Positions 15,866 through 24,911 of a stretch of 64,000 nucleotides of DNA are shown here, in pieces (within the stretch, counting starts at the first letter, position 1; each line of letters begins with the position of its first letter). The position numbers and the translations under genes are program-made. The stretch is from Candidatus Iainarchaeum sp. GTDB taxonomy: Archaea > Iainarchaeota > Iainarchaeia > Iainarchaeales > VGJJ01. The notes beneath the pieces were generated by a model that made no database searches, was not told where the DNA came from, and saw only the letters and a program-made list of their open reading frames with translations. The stretch lies in the NCBI GenBank assembly GCA_043803765.1, contig JAZDJQ010000004.1:1-64000 (forward strand). Reading direction: 5' to 3'.

Positions 15866-17128
15866 ATGCAAATTGGAATTGGGATAAGTAACCTTTCAGA
15901 CCCAGTTTGTGCGACGCAAAAAGCAATTGAAAAATCGATAAATGGAATTGAGGGACCTCCAAAAGCAGTTATTTTCTTAACTACTATTCAATATAAATTT
16001 AATGACGGATTTTCAAAATCATTAAAAAAAATAGTTGAATACTTTCCAAATGCAGAAATAATTGGGGGAACGGTAGCTGGATTTGCTAGCCGGGAGGGTA
16101 TTTTTACAAAAGGCGTTGCAATCGTGGTCATAAATGGCGAGGATGTTGATGTATCCATTGGTATCGGCCACAACACTAAAAAATCGCCAGATATAGCTGG
16201 AAAAAATTGTGCCAGAATGATAAAGAATGGATTAAAAAAGACAAAATTTCCTAATAAATTCTTTTTTATGATTCTTTCTAGTGCAATCGTGCCAGATTTA
16301 CCAATAATACGTAGAAAGAGGATCATCGAAGGCTTCCCTTTTATTAATCAAGCAGTCAACATTTTTGATAGGGTTTCTAGTATTCTTCAGGTTGGTTCTG
16401 GAAAGGACGAATCAGTACTATCCTCTGTAAGTGAAGAGCTTGGTGATTTTTCTGGAATTGGAGGAGCGTCTAGTGACGATTTAAAATTAGAAGAAAATTA
16501 CCAATTTTTTAAGAATCGGTTTTTTACGAATTCAGTAGTGTGTCTTGGGATAGCCACAAAGGTAAGTGGTGATGTTAAAACATCTTTTGGGTTAAAACCT
16601 ACTGGGAAAAAGTTTGCGATTACAGAAACTTCAGTAAGCAAGTATATTGTGAAAAAAATAAATGGTCACAGTGCGGTTGGAGAATATTTAAAGATAATGG
16701 GATGGAATAAAAAAGTGTTGGATGACAGACTGTATAGGAAGGTTTTTTATTTTCCATTTGTTGAAAATGGAATTATTGAAAGAGAAATTCAACCTCGAAT
16801 GTTTGGACTCATATATGGGGAAAATTTTGTTTTCCCAATGAAAGCTAGTAGCGGGAATCTTGAGATTTATCAATCTTCTGGAAAAGATATTATTGAATCA
16901 AATCGAAACGTTGTTGGGGTTGGAAAAAAATCTGGGTTAATAGTATCGTGCGCTACACGATTGGAAACTCTTGGTGGAAAAACTTATAAGATTAAGGAGC
17001 AAGTTTATGACAAATTGTTAGATGATTATTTGATTGTTTATACAGCAGGGGAATATTCTAAACAAAAGGGAGAGAATGCGAGATGTCTTTATCAAAGTGA
17101 TAATGCGTTATTATTTGGACTGCATTAG
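15866..17128 (+). CDS. FIST N/C-domain sensory protein
   Basis: IIGGTVAG, GIGGASSDD..ENYQF, IVKKING, IVSCATR, YTAGEY; low GC. Confidence 0.85.
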   Translation: MQIGIGISNLSDPVCATQKAIEKSINGIEGPPKAVIFLTTIQYKFNDGFSKSLKKIVEYFPNAEIIGGTVAGFASREGIFTKGVAIVVINGEDVDVSIGIGHNTKKSPDIAGKNCARMIKNGLKKTKFPNKFFFMILSSAIVPDLPIIRRKRIIEGFPFINQAVNIFDRVSSILQVGSGKDESVLSSVSEELGDFSGIGGASSDDLKLEENYQFFKNRFFTNSVVCLGIATKVSGDVKTSFGLKPTGKKFAITETSVSKYIVKKINGHSAVGEYLKIMGWNKKVLDDRLYRKVFYFPFVENGIIEREIQPRMFGLIYGENFVFPMKASSGNLEIYQSSGKDIIESNRNVVGVGKKSGLIVSCATRLETLGGKTYKIKEQVYDKLLDDYLIVYTAGEYSKQKGENARCLYQSDNALLFGLH

Positions 17129-18253
17129 TAATTTGCACAATTCGATTTGTTCATCTATTTTTCTATTTGAAAATTCTAAAATAGATTTCATGTTTAATAG
17201 GCCACTACACAAGGTAAACAAAGAAAGACTGTTGTCAATATTCTTCTCAAAAAGTTTTCCCATAATCTCATTAAGTTTAATATTTTCATTCCATTGGGGA
17301 AGATTCGACTCAATATAATGACTATATGATTGAATGTCCCTATTTTCTGCAAAAAAAATTCCAGCAGCATTTCCAGCAATGATGGCAGGCAGAATCCCTT
17401 CAATGAGTGGTTTAAAATTGATATTTGCTGCATCTCCACAAAATGGAATGTCGCCGACTCTCATTATTTTGGGACCCCCCCCAAAACGAGCTGATTTTGA
17501 TTGTTCAGCTATAAAATTTGCATGTTTAAACTGATTCAGAAATGGTTTTGATCTAATCATAGAAAAAAGTTTCTTCTTGAGTGACGCTAAACTACAATTT
17601 ACTTCACCAACTCCAATATTGGCGGATGAAGTAGTTTTAGGAAAAATGTAGCCGTACCCATTAGCAAAATTTTTTGAAAAAATAACTTGCTCGTAATCTG
17701 GCTCTTCTAAATCAATTTGGTTGACCTTCCAAGAACAGACATTTATGAGATCAGTCCCATCAAGCTTAAAATCTAACTCTTGAAGAAATTTTGAATCAGC
17801 CCCGTCACAAAATAGAATCTTTTTTGAATTAAAAAATATTTCTTTTCCACCCACTTTTGCTAAAACTTTATAGTTATTGTCATTTTTAAAAAAAGAAATT
17901 ACCTCATGACCAAATAAGATGACCGCACCTGATTTAATTGCGCAATCGCATAGCCATTTTTCTAAGTCTATTCGATCAATAGTGAACCCTTCATAGTAAC
18001 TTCCTTTTTGTATAATATCGAAATTGTCATGCCAAAAATGAACCCCTTTTATTTCTCGTCGAAAAATATTTTTTGGAATTTTGTATGGTAGAAATGGTAA
18101 AAGAAATTTGCCTATCCCTTCTGCACATCGAACGGGATACCCTGGGCTCTCCTTTCTTTCAATACAAAGAACTTGCAACCCTCTTTTGGAAGCAGAAAGC
18201 GCCGCTGACAATCCGCACGGGCCCCCACCAACAATTAACAAATCATACTGCAT
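17111..18253 (-). CDS. geranylgeranyl reductase-family FAD oxidoreductase
   Basis: DLLIVGGGPCG, CAEG, IDR..LEKWL, DGADS, GYGYIFPK, ANIGVG, GDAA. Confidence 0.88.
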   Translation of the reverse strand: MQYDLLIVGGGPCGLSAALSASKRGLQVLCIERKESPGYPVRCAEGIGKFLLPFLPYKIPKNIFRREIKGVHFWHDNFDIIQKGSYYEGFTIDRIDLEKWLCDCAIKSGAVILFGHEVISFFKNDNNYKVLAKVGGKEIFFNSKKILFCDGADSKFLQELDFKLDGTDLINVCSWKVNQIDLEEPDYEQVIFSKNFANGYGYIFPKTTSSANIGVGEVNCSLASLKKKLFSMIRSKPFLNQFKHANFIAEQSKSARFGGGPKIMRVGDIPFCGDAANINFKPLIEGILPAIIAGNAAGIFFAENRDIQSYSHYIESNLPQWNENIKLNEIMGKLFEKNIDNSLSLFTLCSGLLNMKSILEFSNRKIDEQIELCKLLMQSK

Positions 18254-18287
18254 TCATATGATTAGTGTATTGACATTATATTTATTC

Positions 18288-19520
18288 CTAAAAAATAGCC
18301 ATAGCAACAAGTCTGATGACGTCAATGGGTCTCTTTAAAAAAACTTTCAAAAAAACCACGACGAGTTTCACTTTATCGGATAAAAGACTATCAATTTTAT
18401 GAAGTTTATTGATATCGATTAGAACTCTAAAAAGTGAATCAAAAGTCTTATTGTCCATTTTGTTCATAATTGAACGTAAAAAATGACTTTCTCTCTCATT
18501 CTTTAATAATCTGTACTTAAGTTCATGCTCATAGATTTCCAAGCAATGTGGGTTATCAATATTATCAGCAATTATACTTGCGGAAAGATAGCCTGAAATG
18601 ATGGCTTGTCTAACACCATATCCAAAGATAGGATCCATTACTAGCCCAGCATCCCCTACAAGTGCAACATTCCCAATAACCCTTTTTTTTATAATACCTG
18701 CTTTTCCGATACCAACAAAAGTATTCTGTATTTTTGAACCATTCAAAATGGATTTTAGTTCATAATTTTCTTCTTTGAATCTCTCAAAAAAATATTTTAA
18801 TGACTTGTTCGACTGTTTTGCCTTATCGATAACAATTGATGCCACACAAAAATTATTATTTGTTCGACCAAGATAAAAATAACCCCCTGGAGCTAAAATA
18901 GAATCAAAAAAAATATGAGTCTCACCGGATGGAATATTAATATCCGTAAACACGCCCCCATAACCAACTAAATCTACCCCTTTGCTCTCTAAAAAAAGAA
19001 ATCCGAATTTTTCAAAAATTTTGAAATTAATTCCAACAGCCCCTATAATAAATCGGGTATTAACCAGAACGTGGTTGGAACCTTTTCTTACTTTTACTTT
19101 AGAAAAAAAACCATTTTTACCATATATATCAACTATTTCTGCGTCAGTCCAGAATTTTGCTCCAAGTCTTGATGCTTTCAAAGACACAATTGACTCAAAT
19201 GACTTTTTGCCTGGCCCGCGTAAAATATAATAGTCATGAACATTGGAATGTAATGTAAATGTACAAGATGGAGAGTGCCAAACAGATTTGTTGAATTTAC
19301 CGATGTGTGGAAGATCAAGCTCATAAAAAATATCATCTAGTTCTAAATTTTCAGTTATATCAATTTTTTCATTATTATGGGATCCAATTTTATTTAGTTT
19401 TTCAATTACTAAAACACTTCGACCATCTTTAGCGATTTTAAGAGCAGCGACTGTTCCAGCAATCCCTGCCCCAACCACTAGAACATCAACAAAAATTTCC
19501 TTCATTATTACCACAATCAT
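18288..19520 (-). CDS. second, divergent geranylgeranyl reductase-family FAD oxidoreductase
   Basis: DVLVVGAGIAG, APGGYFY, LVGDAG..DPIFGYGVRQAI; probable start MKEIF. Confidence 0.85.
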   Translation of the reverse strand: MIVVIMKEIFVDVLVVGAGIAGTVAALKIAKDGRSVLVIEKLNKIGSHNNEKIDITENLELDDIFYELDLPHIGKFNKSVWHSPSCTFTLHSNVHDYYILRGPGKKSFESIVSLKASRLGAKFWTDAEIVDIYGKNGFFSKVKVRKGSNHVLVNTRFIIGAVGINFKIFEKFGFLFLESKGVDLVGYGGVFTDINIPSGETHIFFDSILAPGGYFYLGRTNNNFCVASIVIDKAKQSNKSLKYFFERFKEENYELKSILNGSKIQNTFVGIGKAGIIKKRVIGNVALVGDAGLVMDPIFGYGVRQAIISGYLSASIIADNIDNPHCLEIYEHELKYRLLKNERESHFLRSIMNKMDNKTFDSLFRVLIDINKLHKIDSLLSDKVKLVVVFLKVFLKRPIDVIRLVAMAIF

Positions 19521-19543
19521 TATTCCTTTTTAGGGGTTGCTGA

Positions 19544-19924
19544 TTAAGGAGTTGAAAGGATAGCTGTGATTTTCCTTTTAGAATTTTCAATTTCAACATC
19601 TAGAAGTCCTTGATTTGCTAACGCAGGAACTACTGCAACTAAAGCAAATTCCCTCGACACGGGTGCAAGGATAATAGTGTATTCGGCCAGGTCCATGTTG
19701 AGTCTTTCGAGTTTGTAGTCGTAGAATTTTCCAATGGTGTCAAAGAGGTCGTTTGTTGTATCAAGGATGAGTTTGAATAATCCTGAATCCTTGATTTTCT
19801 GGTTGGCCGGGACAACACCCCCGAGTCCTTTCTTTGCGAGCATACAAGCCATAACATCGTCCAGCTTGAGGAGACTTTGAAGTTCCAGCGTTATCAATTC
19901 TGTTTTAGTCGGCATAATTACCAT
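19544..19924 (-). CDS. Roadblock/LC7-domain protein
   Basis: Helix, then VMACMLAKKGL, then YTIILAPVSREFALVAVV..NQGLLDVEIE: typical roadblock topology. Confidence 0.75.
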   Translation of the reverse strand: MVIMPTKTELITLELQSLLKLDDVMACMLAKKGLGGVVPANQKIKDSGLFKLILDTTNDLFDTIGKFYDYKLERLNMDLAEYTIILAPVSREFALVAVVPALANQGLLDVEIENSKRKITAILSTP

Positions 19925-19926
19925 CC

Positions 19927-20541
19927 CTAAATAGGAAGACCCCGCACGTTATACTGATAGTGTTTTTTGAGTTTTTCGGAGTAGTCTCCTACCGAGGCGT
20001 AGGCGATATCGAATCCTATGAAGGCAATAAAGTATTCTAATCCATAGAATCCAAAGTATACTCCTAGAAAAACGGCAATTTTCATGATGAAACGATAGTG
20101 AAAAAAGAAAAGAAAGGGTTTTGCGATTTCGGGATGTTTATCCACATAGTCGTTTCCGATCTCGTCCAATACCCCTGCCACTGTGAGAAAAACAAGTGGC
20201 CCCCACAGGAAATCTACAATTTTGTAGAAATATAATATAATTAGCCCCGAAATGATTGCCAACGCTCCTACGTGAAAACCAATATTATCTACTTTGTTTC
20301 GAGATAATACCGCAAGGAAAATAGCCCCAAGGATAGTAGCAGATGGAACACTTAAGTACATCATAAATATCCAAAAAATAGCAATAACGGGTGCCACGAG
20401 CAGTGCTTTGGTTTTGCTGAATGTTTTTTCATCAAAAGCATCGTCAATATACTTAATGCCACCTCCCAACACCATGTAGGAGGCCAATAGAAAGGGGTAA
20501 AGAAAATAAGGGTCTGGAAAAAGGACATCTTGTGGGATCAT
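19927..20541 (-). CDS. uncharacterised polytopic membrane protein with Asp-rich motifs
   Basis: 6-7 TM helices; KYIDDAFDE, KVDN, LDEIGNDYVD. Confidence 0.8.
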   Translation of the reverse strand: MIPQDVLFPDPYFLYPFLLASYMVLGGGIKYIDDAFDEKTFSKTKALLVAPVIAIFWIFMMYLSVPSATILGAIFLAVLSRNKVDNIGFHVGALAIISGLIILYFYKIVDFLWGPLVFLTVAGVLDEIGNDYVDKHPEIAKPFLFFFHYRFIMKIAVFLGVYFGFYGLEYFIAFIGFDIAYASVGDYSEKLKKHYQYNVRGLPI

Positions 20542-20584
20542 ATATGCCTCAGCAGGAACACCAATTACATTTCATGCCATATTT

Positions 20585-21352
20585 CTATAAACTAAGTCCG
20601 TCCGAAGGTTTGCTTTCTTCAAACGCTACACCTTTAGAGGTTAATTGATAGTTCAAACTTGTCTTTCCATGATCAGTATACCGCATTTTTCTAATACGGA
20701 GAGTACGAAAGGCGGATTGTCCTACAACCAAATTTTCCAACGTAACAACCCCATCCGTCACAAACTCTGTGACCCCATCGGCGGATAATCGTTGCATTCC
20801 TTCCGGTAGTTCGGATGTCATTATCACGGTTGCGCCGAATTCTTTTAGTTTGTTGATTAAATTATAGAGTATTATTTTTGTCATGATTTGTTCTGTTCGT
20901 TGCACGGGAGAAACGGTGTCGGCAATCTTGATTAGTGACACTCCTACATCTTTTTGTAATTCTGACATCATCATGGAATCGGTTAATGTTGTCAACGAAT
21001 CAACTACGATGCGTTTAGGTTTAAACGTTTCAACGAACTCTTCCACTTTCTGAATAAAATGATCCTGTTCTAAAACTTTGAAATAGATAACCTTCAACAG
21101 ATTCTTATTTTCTAAGTCAACTAAATTCCATCCAAACTGGGAAGCGGCCTTCTGTAATTCCTCTTCAGTCTGTTCGGTTGAAATATACAACCCTTTCTCA
21201 CCAAATAAAGTAGCCCCGTTCACCAAAAACTGCATCCCCATAGTCGATTTTCCAGTTCCGGCTCCACCTGATAACAATACGAGATTTCCCTCAGGAAAAC
21301 CCCCCATGAGCGCCTTATCTAGACCTTGAATGCCCGTCTTCGTTCGCTGCAT
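20585..21352 (-). CDS. single-domain KaiC/RAD55-like ATPase
   Basis: TGIQGLDKALMGGFP, GGAGTGKST, YISTEQ, RIVVDSL, EFVTDGVV, LRIRKMR; start at MQRTKTG. Confidence 0.93.
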   Translation of the reverse strand: MQRTKTGIQGLDKALMGGFPEGNLVLLSGGAGTGKSTMGMQFLVNGATLFGEKGLYISTEQTEEELQKAASQFGWNLVDLENKNLLKVIYFKVLEQDHFIQKVEEFVETFKPKRIVVDSLTTLTDSMMMSELQKDVGVSLIKIADTVSPVQRTEQIMTKIILYNLINKLKEFGATVIMTSELPEGMQRLSADGVTEFVTDGVVTLENLVVGQSAFRTLRIRKMRYTDHGKTSLNYQLTSKGVAFEESKPSDGLSL

Positions 21353-21433
21353 GAGGGAAGAAGACTCTAGTCGTATAAAAAGAAGGTGGATTGGATTATT
21401 GTGAATGGGTTTTAAAAGAATCCTAAACGAGTT

Positions 21434-22302
21434 ATGTTTATGGACATCGGGCGGGAAGCGGTTCCTTTTACGGGTGGTAGTCAACGCGTGAGGGACTATG
21501 TATTGGTCATCCTCAGTGAAGAGTTTCCGCTAACAGTTAAGGAGATTTATAGACAAGTCTTGAAACAGGGAAATAATGTCACGTATCAGGCTGTGCATAA
21601 AGTCATCACTCAACTTCTAAGTGAAAACATTTTAGAGAAAAAAGGGAAAAATGTTCAACTTAGCTCGCAATGGATAGAACGTGTTAAAGATTACGCGTTC
21701 ACTGTGAATGTAGCATATTTCAAGGGAAAAGAATTCAACCTCCCACGTCATCTTGATCAATCTCACCGCGTGACGTTCGATGACTATTCTTCATATGTCA
21801 CTTGGCTAGCCGAGAATTTCCGTGATGGAAAATTCACTGGAAGAAAACCGTCTGCCGTATACGGGATGTTCCGTCATGCATTGTTTCCACTGCGGTTCAA
21901 TTTTATGGATTTCAATCTTCTTCGGGCTGCTGCGTCCAGTTGTACTATCAGGGGTTCTCGACAGAAGATACTCCGTTCGACCGATGGGTAACTCATAATT
22001 ATATGCTGGGCGGAATCAAGGAATTCCAGACTGGAATCAAAGTGGATATTAATGACGATTATTTCTCGGTTGGAGATATGGTCATTCGTGCTCACTTTTC
22101 GGATGCTACCATTGCATTCTTAGATAATGCATTTGGCAAGATTGGCGACATGAAACAATTGTTCCAATTCTATTTTCAGACGATGGGGAAGAAGGAACCT
22201 ACTCATATTGAGGTCACTATTGAAAAAAATCCCACTATGGCAAGGATAATCAAAAATCAAATCCTCACATATCTTGGTAAGAAAGAAGAAATAATCAAAT
22301 GA
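21434..22302 (+). pseudogene. winged-helix regulator with C-terminal domain, split by a single frameshift (ORFs 21434-21991 and 21940-22302)
   Basis: wHTH FPLTVKEIYRQV..VTYQAVHKVITQLLSENILEK; one extra G in the G4 run 21951-21954 joins both ORFs (..CTIRGFSTEDTPFDRW..); may be a sequencing error. Confidence 0.7.
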
Positions 22303-22386
22303 TGTAATTGAAAAATAGCATAATAACTACCCGTACAATTCATATTATATCAAGAATCGCTGTTCTAATAAGTGATTTTTTTCTAC

Positions 22387-22530
22387 TCACACATTCCTCT
22401 CAACCCATTTTTTCAATATGCGATTGAGCACCAATTCGGTTGTTTGTTCCCCTGGGCCATAACGTTTTTCCACTATTTTCCTGAATTTTTCTTCCACTTC
22501 CTTTTCAATATCCACAATCCACGTGCTCAT
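22387..22530 (-). CDS. 47-aa ribbon-helix-helix-like DNA-binding protein (absent from the ORF track)
   Basis: Hand translation MSTWIVDIEKEVEEKFRKIVEKRYGPGEQTTELVLNRILKKWVERNV; GGGGGA SD-like motif upstream. Confidence 0.7.
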   Translation of the reverse strand: MSTWIVDIEKEVEEKFRKIVEKRYGPGEQTTELVLNRILKKWVERNV

Positions 22531-22649
22531 TTTGGTATTCCCCCTTACTCTTTTCCTTTTTTTCGTTCATAGTCGTGAAGGAGCACTCCCTATATCGCCA
22601 ATAATGGGGAATAGGAAAATGCACCCATAGAATTATGTTGATGTTTTGG

Positions 22650-22691
22650 GTAATATAGATGTGGTTTAACCTCATTCAACTTTACCGTTGA
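22650..22691 (-). promoter_or_regulatory. promoter with TCAAC-N6-GTTGA palindrome (copy 2)
   Basis: gtaatatag..tggtt.aac.....TCAACTTTACCGTTGA, same spacing as 10883-10924. Confidence 0.65.
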
Positions 22692-22844
22692 TTTTCATAC
22701 CAAAATTATTCCCCCTTTTTCATTGGCATCGTGTTATTTGGAATCACTCGCTGCATCGTTTTTCTCTCTTTTTTCGCTATATTTTTATACAATACCCCGC
22801 ATTTACCGTTTATCAACGAATGAATATTCGACACGGATGGGTGA

Positions 22845-23924
22845 ATGAGAATGAGTGAACAACCTATTGATATTAAGAAATTCCTATCCGAGGGGTCGGA
22901 GGAAATTAATACCGCCATCGAGAAGCTTGTTCCCCATACGATTGATGTAGAATGGTTGGAAAAAACATTTGGTAAACCATCCTATGGATACGACGTTGAG
23001 AGTATTCAGAAAGGCATCATTGAACCCATGTGGGATTTGTTAGATCGGGGGGGAAAGCGATGGCGTCCTGCATTATTCTTGTTAAGTCTAGAAGCAGTGG
23101 GGGGAAATAAGGAAAAATATTTCCATTATACGGCATTGCCGGAGATTATTCATAATGGAACGCTTATTGCGGATGATGTAGAGGATAGTTCCGAATTACG
23201 AAGAGGAAAACCCTGCATTCACAAAATTTATGGAGTGGATGTGGCGGTGAATTTGTACCCAGCCATGTTCTTTTTTCCATTTGCTTTAGTGTGGCGCGAT
23301 CCAACATTGGATGATAAAACCAAAATCAAGCTTGCAGAATTAATTACGTTTGAATTGTTGCGCTGCCACGCAGGGCAGGGATTAGATATCTGGTGGCACC
23401 GAGGAAACAAATACAATGTGAGTGAAAATGAATATTTGCAAATGTGCGCGTACAAAACAGGAACACTTGCGCGTTTGTCGGCTAAAATGGGGGCCGTGTT
23501 AGGAAAAGGGAGTGAGGAACAAATTGAAGCATTGGGAAAGTTTGCCGAAACAATAGGAGTAGCATTCCAGATACAAGATGATATTCTTAATTTAGTAGGA
23601 GAAGAATTTGGAAAAGGAAAAGGAGCAGGAGAAGACATTCATGAGGGAAAAAGAACCATTATGGTATTGCATACTCTTGAAAAGGCCACTCCAGAGGATA
23701 AACGGCGATTATTGGGTATTTTGAATGCCCACCCTGAAGATGAGAAAACGATACAAGAAGCCATTGAAATCATCAAAAAATACGGCGGAATCGAATACGG
23801 TGCGGGCAGAGCAAAAGAACTTGTTGAAAAAAGCTGGAAGATGGTAGAAAAAGTGCTTCCTTCATCGCACGCCAAAAACGTACTGCAGGCGTTCGCACAT
23901 TATTTGATTAACAGAAAAATATGA
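22845..23924 (+). CDS. idsA: polyprenyl (geranylgeranyl) diphosphate synthase
   Basis: GGKRWRP, LIADDVED..RRG, GQGLD, YKTG, FQIQDD, EDIHEGK. Confidence 0.93.
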   Translation: MRMSEQPIDIKKFLSEGSEEINTAIEKLVPHTIDVEWLEKTFGKPSYGYDVESIQKGIIEPMWDLLDRGGKRWRPALFLLSLEAVGGNKEKYFHYTALPEIIHNGTLIADDVEDSSELRRGKPCIHKIYGVDVAVNLYPAMFFFPFALVWRDPTLDDKTKIKLAELITFELLRCHAGQGLDIWWHRGNKYNVSENEYLQMCAYKTGTLARLSAKMGAVLGKGSEEQIEALGKFAETIGVAFQIQDDILNLVGEEFGKGKGAGEDIHEGKRTIMVLHTLEKATPEDKRRLLGILNAHPEDEKTIQEAIEIIKKYGGIEYGAGRAKELVEKSWKMVEKVLPSSHAKNVLQAFAHYLINRKI

Positions 23925-23939
23925 TAGCTGGATTTCGCA

Positions 23940-24503
23940 TTACGAATTCAAGCTCAACTGCCGCTGCGTCTGCTCTTTCGTGAAGTCAAATTCTTTTAGT
24001 GGTTTGAGAATAAAGGTGCAGTCTCCCGGACGTAAGGCGTGGCATTCACTCTCAACGCATTCAACGTTTGTTTCAAAATATTCGGAAAAAATAGCAGCGA
24101 GAATGGCACGCGTGTAGTGGTCGGAAGGATGTTTTACTTTTCCCTGCACGGCATTTGCGAGAGGAGAAAAGGACAATACTACGATGGCGCGGTGATTCAC
24201 TTCGTCCACTTCCACGTTTTTCATTAATCCCCAACCGGAAGCCATGAAGAATGCTTGGGCCAATTCTAAAAACTTGGGTTTGGTTGTTCCTGCTTTGAAT
24301 TTTGGAATGAGTTTTTGTCTCGTTGATTTCTTGAATGCATAATATACGGCCTTATTGATAAGTGGTTCATCTAACTCAGCAAAGCCAAGCAACATGTCCA
24401 CTGGGACGATTACGAATGGAATATCAAGCACATAGAAATTATAGTCTTTAAACTTCAATTGCGAAGTAAAAATGAATTTATCAAAAAAATTATTGAGAAC
24501 CAT
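23940..24503 (-). CDS. V4R (4-vinyl reductase) domain protein
   Basis: FMASGWG, DHYTRAILAAIFS, CVESECHAL...CTF. Confidence 0.82.
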   Translation of the reverse strand: MVLNNFFDKFIFTSQLKFKDYNFYVLDIPFVIVPVDMLLGFAELDEPLINKAVYYAFKKSTRQKLIPKFKAGTTKPKFLELAQAFFMASGWGLMKNVEVDEVNHRAIVVLSFSPLANAVQGKVKHPSDHYTRAILAAIFSEYFETNVECVESECHALRPGDCTFILKPLKEFDFTKEQTQRQLSLNS

Positions 24504-24509
24504 ATTGAA

Positions 24510-24911
24510 TCATCGACTCCTCTTTGGATGCAGTGAAAGGTATTTCGTTTCATGCATGATGCGAAGGGATTCCACTTCATACGGCCATACGACTAATGCG
24601 TTTCCAAAACGCTTGGACATGAGGTGTTTTTTCTGAACGAGTTTTTTGATGTGATATACGATGCGCGAAGATAAGATGCGTTTTTCTTCCCGAGTAGAGA
24701 AAGAATGACCTAGGAATTCGGCGATTTCCAGTGAAGAGGTGGGCCAGCGATTTTTTACCACATGAAGAATACGGTCCTCTTCAGAGGAAAGGAAAGCAAC
24801 ATCGCCATCCTCTCTCATTTCAGGCATGTTCGAATAGTAATCGATCAGATGCTGATTCACAATAGAATGGAAAGAGCGGCCCCGAGAATAAAAGGACATC
24901 TGGCATGCCAA
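24510..24911 (-). CDS. winged-helix protein
   Basis: WPTSSLEIAEFLG..RIVYHIKKLVQKKHLMSKRFGNALVVWP; true start probably near 24828. Confidence 0.7.
   Translation of the reverse strand: MACQMSFYSRGRSFHSIVNQHLIDYYSNMPEMREDGDVAFLSSEEDRILHVVKNRWPTSSLEIAEFLGHSFSTREEKRILSSRIVYHIKKLVQKKHLMSKRFGNALVVWPYEVESLRIMHETKYLSLHPKRSR

Follow-up and report, generated by a model that had tools for sequence, protein, structure and literature searches.

The stretch described here occupies positions 15866–24911 of a 64,000-nucleotide window (contig C4:1-64000), which is the whole stretch of DNA that was analysed and which belongs to a 1.02-Mb, 93% complete genome from the archaeal order Iainarchaeales. It contains a gene module encoding a FIST-domain protein, two flavoproteins of the geranylgeranyl reductase (GGR) family, a Roadblock/LC7-fold protein (RB), a membrane protein of an unnamed family (MEM) and a KaiC-like ATPase, next to genes for a polyprenyl diphosphate synthase (IDS), a V4R-domain protein and putative winged helix-turn-helix (wHTH) proteins. 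The genes are the following.

15866–17128, plus strand: FIST-domain protein, 420 amino acids (aa); Pfam FIST_N, 75.3 bits, E = 7.4e-21
17111–18253, minus strand: GGR1, GGR-family flavoprotein, 380 aa; TIGR02032, 127.3 bits
18288–19520, minus strand: GGR2, divergent GGR-family flavoprotein, 410 aa; TIGR02032, 79.7 bits
19544–19924, minus strand: RB, Roadblock/LC7-fold protein, 126 aa; identified by an AlphaFold2 (AF2) model and Foldseek
19927–20541, minus strand: MEM, membrane protein of an unnamed family, 204 aa; about seven transmembrane helices and conserved motifs
20585–21352, minus strand: KaiC-like ATPase, single-domain, 255 aa; PF06745, 189.8 bits
21434–22302, plus strand: wH1, frameshifted gene for a putative wHTH regulator (about 286 aa); FUR, 0.0087, sub-threshold
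22387–22530, minus strand: conserved 47-aa open reading frame (ORF), the sole candidate for a ribbon-helix-helix (RHH) protein
22845–23924, plus strand: IDS, short-chain trans-polyprenyl diphosphate synthase; PF00348, 227.5 bits
23940–24503, minus strand: V4R-domain protein, 187 aa; V4R, 27.9 bits against a gathering cut-off of 31 (PF02830)
24510–24911, minus strand: wH2, small putative wHTH protein, 6 nucleotides (nt) upstream of V4R

All eleven ORFs that a preliminary description of this DNA had placed here are present. The gene order on the minus strand is KaiC, MEM, RB, GGR2 and GGR1 with successive gaps of 43, 2, 23 and 34 nt, as expected from its account of five co-directional genes spaced by less than 45 nt, and the FIST and GGR1 genes are convergent, with tails overlapping by 18 nt. 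The family assignments stood for FIST, both GGR-family flavoproteins, the Roadblock fold, the Asp-rich membrane protein, KaiC and the polyprenyl synthase, whereas the V4R protein falls just under the Pfam cut-off, both wHTH calls are weak and the RHH call has no model match. The stretch consists of two layers: an accessory module, formed by KaiC–MEM–RB–GGR2–GGR1 and the convergent FIST gene, and a set of core-genome genes. The proposal that the eleven genes form one unit has to be given up, since many genomes that lack MEM, RB, FIST and the reductases nevertheless have orthologues of KaiC, V4R and wH1.

The recurrence of the module was surveyed at the level of the order in 61 Iainarchaeales genomes (60 relatives and the source genome). 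MEM is found in 18 of these genomes, in 13 of them strongly, and in 5/16 same-genus genomes; RB is found in 12 genomes and FIST in the identical twelve, ten of which also carry MEM. At the relatives' loci (n = 14), KaiC, MEM and RB are contiguous in nine, a GGR-family gene follows RB in seven and FIST lies nearby in 11. Within this order, the module sits next to a KaiC/V4R/wHTH set that was there before it. With the MEM alignment as query, 106 relatives were found, from which 80 loci, each from a different species, were retained; 37 of these MEM loci are well flanked, with at least 3 kb upstream and at least 5 kb downstream. Within 8 kb of MEM, a GGR-family gene is present at 54/80 loci (31/37 of the well-flanked subset), a KaiC domain at 44/80 (20/37), RB at 38/80 (24/37) and FIST at 34/80 (24/37). 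The MEM relatives come from at least seven archaeal lineages, with loci in Iainarchaeota, Micrarchaeota, Aenigmatarchaeota, Thermoplasmatota, Methanophagales and Methanosarcinales, as well as in Halobacteria-type metagenome-assembled genomes (MAGs), Hydrothermarchaeota, Bathyarchaeia and Altiarchaeales. At loci holding both genes, tight same-strand adjacency (at most 150 nt) is seen for MEM and KaiC in 25/31 cases, for RB and FIST in 17/31 and for RB and MEM in 21/38, and an enzyme gene abuts FIST in 31 of 34 loci.

Three layouts are seen among these loci. The DPANN type reads KaiC–MEM–RB–GGR2–GGR1 with FIST convergent, as in the window; the Thermoplasmatota type comprises MEM (often in two copies), GGR1 and a converging RB–FIST operon; and in the Halobacteriota type, MEM is accompanied by a FilR1-family regulator, GGR genes and a convergent gene whose product, about 1000 aa long, ends in a KaiC domain. 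The core that moves between phyla is MEM, a GGR1-type reductase, FIST and RB. In DPANN lineages KaiC is added to it, and in Halobacteriota-type genomes KaiC is added in the form of a large fusion protein. The module is accessory and is horizontally exchanged. Linkage in related genomes had been named beforehand as a point on which the preliminary description should stand or fall, and it recurs both across the order and across phyla.

Some further features of the relatives' loci were noted. MEM occurs as a tandem duplicate in many Thermoplasmatota loci, and two modules from Thermoplasmatales MAGs (L062 and L104) each hold a tandem array of three FIST genes and a tandem pair of MEM genes. At L099:8557-11556, L061:8545-11571, L074:6232-9288 and five more loci, from Halobacteriota, ANME-1 and Hydrothermarchaeota, MEM faces the KaiC-tailed protein of about 1000 aa and has a FilR1-family regulator upstream; in these proteins a KaiC-like domain lies at residues ~780–980 and the N-terminal 780 aa match no family. 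An origin of the eight proteins as FIST, RB and KaiC fusions was considered and rejected, as the FIST and RB hidden Markov models have no match in them. Single in-frame stop codons (TGA, TAG or TAA) occur in relatives' module genes at G028:C1:68303-68668, G001:C25:5453-6715 and G035:C4:2890-3615.

The best PDB match of GGR1 is 3oz2, the digeranylgeranylglycerophospholipid (DGGGPL) reductase from T. acidophilum (E = 7.3e-26, about 310 residues aligned), and in this alignment the RCAEG of GGR1 is placed on the catalytic Cys and its GYGYIFP on the YxWxFP motif, of which GGR1 has a YxYxFP version; these two features, located from the 3oz2 alignment, we take to be the hallmarks of GGRs. GGR2 also has 3oz2 as its best PDB match (E = 1.2e-18) and has neither the catalytic Cys nor the aromatic motif. 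The Cys is found in 39/47 GGR1-like rows, 0/26 GGR2 rows and 20/23 non-module rows of the alignment, the GGR2 clade having the motif PGGYF[FY]xG. Both proteins also weakly match hydroxylase, halogenase and maturase models. Trees were built with FastTree (101 rows) and with IQ-TREE in its quick mode (95 rows, four duplicates and two long branches being dropped). In both trees, the GGR2-like proteins form one clade with a support of 100 and GGR1 lies within a set of 33–35 rows, every one of which is module-linked, while the non-module GGR paralogues of five Iainarchaeales genomes, two of them module-less, form three or four separate orthologous groups. The two reductases, as had been anticipated for dedicated enzymes, do not branch with the canonical GGR paralogues of the genome and instead fall into two clades of module-linked proteins only.

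The 1-Mb source genome has seven TIGR02032 matches, corresponding to six or seven GGR-family genes, and three genes other than GGR1 and GGR2 exceed the TIGR02032 cut-off (228, 210 and 184 bits). The genome contains GGGPS, UbiA and three canonical GGRs, and from this gene content the source organism appears to make its own ether lipids. GGR-family genes also lie at G000:C16:22577-23539, C16:30348-31202, C2:13951-14799 and C4:68438-69373, and one of those on C16 adjoins a CrtI-family phytoene-desaturase-like gene (TIGR02734, 278.9 bits).

MEM of the window carries the motifs IDDAFDE and DEIGNDYVD, and its family is characterized by the motifs KxIDDxFDE, GKxDN, DExGNDxxD and FFxxRxxxK. Fourteen residues, mostly charged, are invariant in 89 sequences (G26, K30, D33, D37, V78, K83, D85, D126, E127, N130, D131, R150, K154 and Y181), and the Asp-rich motifs IDDxFDE (33–38) and DExGNDxxD (126–134) are conserved throughout this set. 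The order of the helices and the K/R-rich C-terminus of the model suggest that the three acidic motifs face the cytoplasm. The AF2 model has eight helices and a predicted local distance difference test (pLDDT) score of 93.5. The family comprises 646 representative clusters, with lengths of 90–258 aa among the 150 listed; the listed relatives are all annotated as hypothetical, save one with a JGI ABC-permease label, and none has a Pfam domain. A PDB sequence-profile search with MEM returned nothing below E = 1, an Atlas search returned unnamed clusters only, none of the 89 family members matches PF01040 (UbiA), and among longer proteins no fusion form of MEM was found, which is weak evidence. 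When MEM was aligned by hhalign with 27 UbiA sequences from relatives, a score of 32.7 over 149 columns was obtained (E = 7.7e-4), compared with 22.5 and 20.5 (probability 1–2%) for reversed controls, and both Asp-rich motifs of MEM were superposed on the two Asp-rich motifs of UbiA.

None of 39 RB family members matches the Roadblock model PF03259 at E ≤ 1, RB itself has no Pfam hit of any kind, and a PDB sequence-profile search returned nothing below E = 1. Its AF2 model (pLDDT 89.8) has the topology α-β-β-α-β-β-β-α and gives 80 matches at E ≤ 1e-3 in a Foldseek comparison with the PDB, the best being 9jue (E = 2e-6, TM-score 0.75–0.79), and the matches listed are all of the Roadblock, MglB/MglC or Ragulator type. 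The assignment of RB as a Roadblock protein is therefore supported at the level of the predicted fold by solved Roadblock/MglB structures. A profile search gave 1672 relatives; JGI names five of the 120 listed as Roadblock/LC7/MglB, and some relatives carry PF27410. In the 93% complete genome no gene exceeds the cut-off for Ras-family GTPases (PF00071, best 16.9 bits), the only GTPase family searched. In the FIST protein, Pfam at E ≤ 0.01 lists FIST_N only and no FIST_C match.

The FIST–GGR1–GGR2 segment (~15.85–19.5 kb) has a G+C content of 32–35%, compared with 39–42% in RB, MEM, KaiC and the left flank, and the edges of the low-GC segment coincide with the gene boundaries of FIST and GGR2. 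Within the genus, the identity is 74–87% for KaiC, 71–87% for RB and 61–72% for MEM, while the window FIST is 30–31% identical to its counterparts in four same-genus genomes, 43% identical to the one from a different family of the order and 82% identical to that in one same-genus genome over a contig-truncated C-terminal part (143 aligned residues). FIST, GGR1 and GGR2 form a swapped low-GC cassette. At the cassette position some relatives carry an Amino_oxidase gene with a GNAT-like gene, or a saccharopine-dehydrogenase-like gene, and others carry UbiA, a lycopene-cyclase-like flavoprotein and a V4R-like gene; in variant loci, UbiA, lycopene-cyclase-like or CrtI-type Amino_oxidase genes lie between KaiC and MEM or replace the GGRs. 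The FIST proteins encoded beside the GNAT-like gene form one clade with a support of 96 that includes Thermoplasmatota and Iainarchaeia-like members (four rows, two lineages). The exchange of FIST together with the enzymes suggests that the specificities of sensor and enzyme change together. In one relative's module an IS1595-family transposase gene (L031:2923-3684) lies between the Amino_oxidase gene and GGR2.

In the core layer, IDS has two DDxxD motifs (DDVED and DDILN), and its best NCBIfam match is IdsA (248 bits against a cut-off of 468); GGPP_syn scores 184 against 500. It is the sole PF00348 match in the genome, and four module-less same-genus genomes keep the block DHH ... wH2–V4R–synthase, whose synteny with the window stops after the synthase. 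Because it is the only PF00348 gene and because module-less relatives keep the block, IDS is a housekeeping enzyme that lies outside the module, and its earlier description as a dedicated part of the circuit is withdrawn. Some relatives have two tandem polyprenyl synthase genes beside V4R (L027:3652-5841 and L189:7474-9712); in several same-genus genomes, one tandem synthase is 62–69% and the other 26–30% identical to the window IDS, the source genome having one.

The KaiC ORF is open for 44 further codons upstream to a TTG at 21484, overlapping the wH1 start, and the relatives begin at the ATG at 21352, to which the annotated start should probably be shortened. The Walker A sequence G-x-x-G-x-GK (G29, G32, G34 and K35) and D118/S119 are invariant in 27 sequences, and the source genome has seven KaiC-family genes, this one included. 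V4R is found in 46/61 genomes, including 16/16 of the genus, and its translation has a Cys-rich C-terminus; a paralogue from the module of one relative reaches 31.5 bits. In 20 of the 25 relatives with both genes on one contig, V4R lies at most 10 kb from the KaiC orthologue, in agreement with the linkage first proposed. In four module-less genomes (G002:C4:348564-349885, G016:C42:7815-9134, G026:C26:11012-13479 and G046:C9:163656-165579), a V4R-like paralogue lies directly downstream of KaiC and occupies the MEM–RB position, and in G059 such a paralogue lies ~0.6 kb downstream of KaiC; the V4R orthologue often precedes KaiC. These arrangements suggest a V4R–KaiC–V4R core set in Iainarchaeales. 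The wH2 gene is paired with V4R in 6/6 complete-V4R loci of relatives, and the two probably form an operon. Neither wHTH call reaches its threshold (in the case of wH2, HTH_20 at 0.026 in a relative), and wH2 itself matches no Pfam or NCBIfam model. The wH1 gene is divergent from KaiC and belongs to a family present in 40/61 genomes, often as tandem copies. Its placement in the FilR1 family was rejected: hhalign gives a probability of 9% over the wHTH part only, and a value of 0.86 for FilR1-type clusters in the Atlas serves only as a lead. The 47-aa ORF is 58–61% identical to ORFs adjoining wH1 in three same-genus genomes, and neither it nor two orthologues (0/3) match a Pfam RHH model at E ≤ 1; a plus-strand ORF at 22372–22572 appears to be noncoding.

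The best explanation that we can offer is that the module modifies a membrane isoprenoid under the control of a sensor, with a probability of about 0.42. It builds on directly observed features, namely the gene content, the recurrence, the phyletic co-occurrence, the separate reductase clades, the Roadblock fold, the motifs and the cassette exchange. The substrate, the role of MEM, every contact between proteins and the direction of signalling are what we infer, as follows. KaiC, MEM, RB, GGR2 and GGR1 would be expressed as one transcription unit with FIST convergent to it. MEM may be an integral-membrane enzyme or a lipid-binding platform, the three cytoplasmic acidic motifs of which would bind a polyprenyl compound in phosphorylated or Mg-bound form; GGR1, whose GGR active site appears intact, would saturate double bonds of this compound, and GGR2, in which the catalytic Cys is missing, may be a partner or may perform altered chemistry. 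FIST would bind a small ligand that corresponds to the enzymes of its cassette, and a Roadblock dimer acting as an adaptor would relay the state of FIST to the KaiC ATPase and the neighbouring wHTH regulators. The output would be enzyme activity or expression, in a histidine-kinase-free circuit that tunes a membrane isoprenoid, and the sole GGPP-type (geranylgeranyl diphosphate-type) synthase of the core layer would feed all isoprenoid synthesis.

Several observations weigh against this explanation. None of the members of the module in the 80-locus set comes from a cultured organism. GGR1 and GGR2 have the GGR subfamily TIGR02032 as their best NCBIfam match at scores below its 158.8-bit cut-off (127.3 and 79.7), GGR2 is without the catalytic Cys, no characterized reference enzyme is included in either GGR tree, and a GGR gene is absent at 6/37 well-flanked MEM loci. 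The Amino_oxidase, saccharopine-dehydrogenase-like and GNAT-like genes of the alternative cassettes also fit amine metabolism. MEM matches no Pfam family, its model has no PDB match at E ≤ 1e-3 by Foldseek, with UbiA not being among the listed structural matches, and its kinship with UbiA, with an hhalign probability of only 25%, is suggestive and does not amount to membership. The candidate regulator wH1 is frameshifted near position 21950, next to a GGGG run: residues 10–174 of its first ORF and residues 4–117 of its second correspond to residues 10–174 and 173–286 of one 286-aa relative, the intact relatives having 284–289 aa, and wH1 may have decayed into a pseudogene or may reflect an error of assembly. 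In Thermoplasmatota, the set of MEM, GGR, FIST and RB mostly lacks an adjacent KaiC, which is found in just 2/15 well-flanked modules; a KaiC orthologue (at least 49% identity) is also present in 37/61 Iainarchaeales genomes, including module-less ones. Because it is rare near Thermoplasmatota modules and common in module-less genomes, KaiC may be a neighbour rather than a component of the module.

The predicted interaction among the signalling proteins also has to be weighed here. The complex of KaiC, FIST and RB was modelled with RB as the scored partner and with custom alignments, for which the calibration holds only roughly. RB obtained a median score of 0.38 (runs of 0.40, 0.19 and 0.38), compared with 0.16 for the best control and 0.00 with FIST replaced, and the runs shared at least 96% of contacts with a partner pLDDT of at least 79. 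In the calibration, 58/80 solved complexes and 2/110 mismatched pairs reached the mark; at scores of at most 0.60, the mark was reached by 7/80 solved complexes and by both of the passing mismatches, which places the RB score in a range where a pass is wrong more often than it is right, unless the guess is already likely. The prediction lends weak support to an association of RB with KaiC and FIST, in the low-scoring range, and no more than that to the interaction anticipated among the signalling proteins.

The cassettes with amine-type genes raise the possibility that the module acts on a small molecule other than an isoprenoid, such as an amine, a polyamine or an amino-acid derivative, which the flavoproteins would oxidize or reduce, MEM would transport and FIST would sense. 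The ligands of FIST domains are generally considered to be small molecules, for instance amino acids, GGR2 has none of the GGR catalytic features, and the weak hydroxylase, halogenase and maturase matches of both reductases would also be in keeping with such a substrate. However, the best matches of GGR1 are by far DGGGPL reductases, with which it aligns at both the Cys and the aromatic motif, variant modules contain UbiA prenyltransferase and lycopene-cyclase-like genes, the Amino_oxidase family also includes CrtI-type carotenoid enzymes, and MEM matches no transporter family or fold; we regard this alternative as unlikely. MEM could also be the membrane anchor or sensor of a FIST–Roadblock(–KaiC) complex that reports the state of the membrane, the reductases being its regulated output. 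The close spacing of its gene to those of KaiC and RB (25/31 and 21/38 loci, with a MEM–RB gap of 2 nt in the window) and the lack of an enzyme-family or fold match for MEM would agree with this, as would the fact that Roadblock proteins are membrane-proximal adaptors in the Ragulator and MglB systems. Against it stand the invariant D/E/N/K/R set in two Asp-rich motifs, which would be typical of metal- or diphosphate-binding active sites, the frequent tandem duplication of MEM beside GGR1 without KaiC in Thermoplasmatota, and the motif-on-motif alignment of MEM with UbiA, which scores above the reversed controls. An anchoring or sensing role of this kind is, in our view, equally unlikely.

A conflict or defence island, in which an accessory cassette with variable cargo and an ATPase spreads horizontally, would account for the patchy distribution (MEM in 5/16 same-genus genomes), the swapped low-GC cassette, the IS1595-family transposase in one relative's module and the position of the module at a synteny break. 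In a PADLOC search, however, 8/10 proteins had no defence-family match and the other two gave Rossmann-stretch and P-loop hits, the 26 neighbouring genes scanned had no nuclease, toxin or restriction domains, and the gene content is metabolic and sensory, which makes a defence function very improbable. Chance juxtaposition of housekeeping lipid genes with unrelated signalling genes holds for part of the stretch, given the sole synthase, the V4R, wH2 and synthase genes kept together in four module-less relatives and the widespread KaiC, V4R and wH1 orthologues. For the module it is hardly credible: the association of MEM, GGR, FIST and RB recurs across phyla, RB and FIST share one 12-genome profile and the reductases form dedicated clades, and for the core from KaiC to FIST this explanation is already refuted by the cross-phylum recurrence and the shared RB/FIST profile.

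The significance of the module lies in what it could reveal about the substrates of the many archaeal GGR paralogues and about the sensing and adjustment of membrane isoprenoids in archaea. It offers a concrete and widespread test case, with two dedicated reductase clades, a membrane protein with active-site-like motifs and a co-travelling FIST–Roadblock pair. Finding its chemistry would give a function to the MEM family and to the Roadblock-like family, as well as a role to a Roadblock protein in a cell without a Ras-type GTPase. A bolder version, which we consider unlikely, is that MEM represents a family of intramembrane prenyl (di)phosphate enzymes that is new and may even have a new fold, and that together with the GGR clade would make a novel saturated isoprenoid lipid or signal. 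The level of this compound would be read by FIST–Roadblock and passed to KaiC, in a histidine-kinase-free circuit for lipid homeostasis or lipid signalling that would be cassette-exchanged in at least seven lineages.

A description of the module was not found in the literature searched, which did not include Makarova et al. 2017, and within that scope the statement that no system of this composition has been described is consistent with our results. Individual components can nevertheless be compared with known systems. GGR1 resembles the archaeal GGRs, as represented by 3oz2, in its FAD Rossmann fold, its Cys and its version of the aromatic motif, whereas the module enzymes differ in their sub-cut-off scores, in forming clades of their own and, for GGR2, in lacking the Cys. 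The multiplicity of archaeal GGR paralogues is discussed by Rao and Driessen 2024 (PMC10821996), and the six or seven members in the source genome match it; a search of that review did not find the terms 'KaiC', 'operon', 'synteny' or 'gene cluster', FIST, Roadblock and the membrane protein not being among the terms searched. MEM is similar to the UbiA prenyltransferases in crossing the membrane several times and in having two Asp-rich motifs, but has ~200 aa and seven helices, compared with ~290 aa and nine helices in UbiA. The FIST protein shares the FIST_N domain with FIST sensors including NosP, but scores 58.7 against a cut-off of 450 for NosP, shows no link to haem or nitric oxide (NO), and is partnered with a Roadblock protein rather than with a kinase or cyclase. 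RB has the same predicted fold as MglB of the MglB/MglA system, the Asgard Roadblock proteins and LAMTOR/Ragulator (TM-scores of 0.63–0.79 to 9jue, 7ct3, 7f8m and 6hjm), and differs in that its conserved neighbours are FIST, MEM and KaiC instead of a small GTPase. KaiC-like ATPases were reportedly proposed as archaeal signalling hubs by Makarova, Galperin and Koonin in 2017. The window KaiC is likewise a single-domain protein with intact Walker motifs, from an expanded family and with sensor-type and wHTH neighbours, but the modules of Thermoplasmatota can do without KaiC. Finally, the wH2–V4R pair resembles, as judged from sequence comparison, a split form of MsvR, the methanogen redox regulator that combines wHTH and V4R: the V4R protein has a match to the C-terminal portion of the MsvR model (E = 1.6e-4), although with a score of 21.4 against a cut-off of 220, wH2 matches no model, and the putative regulator is here encoded by two genes 6 nt apart rather than by one.

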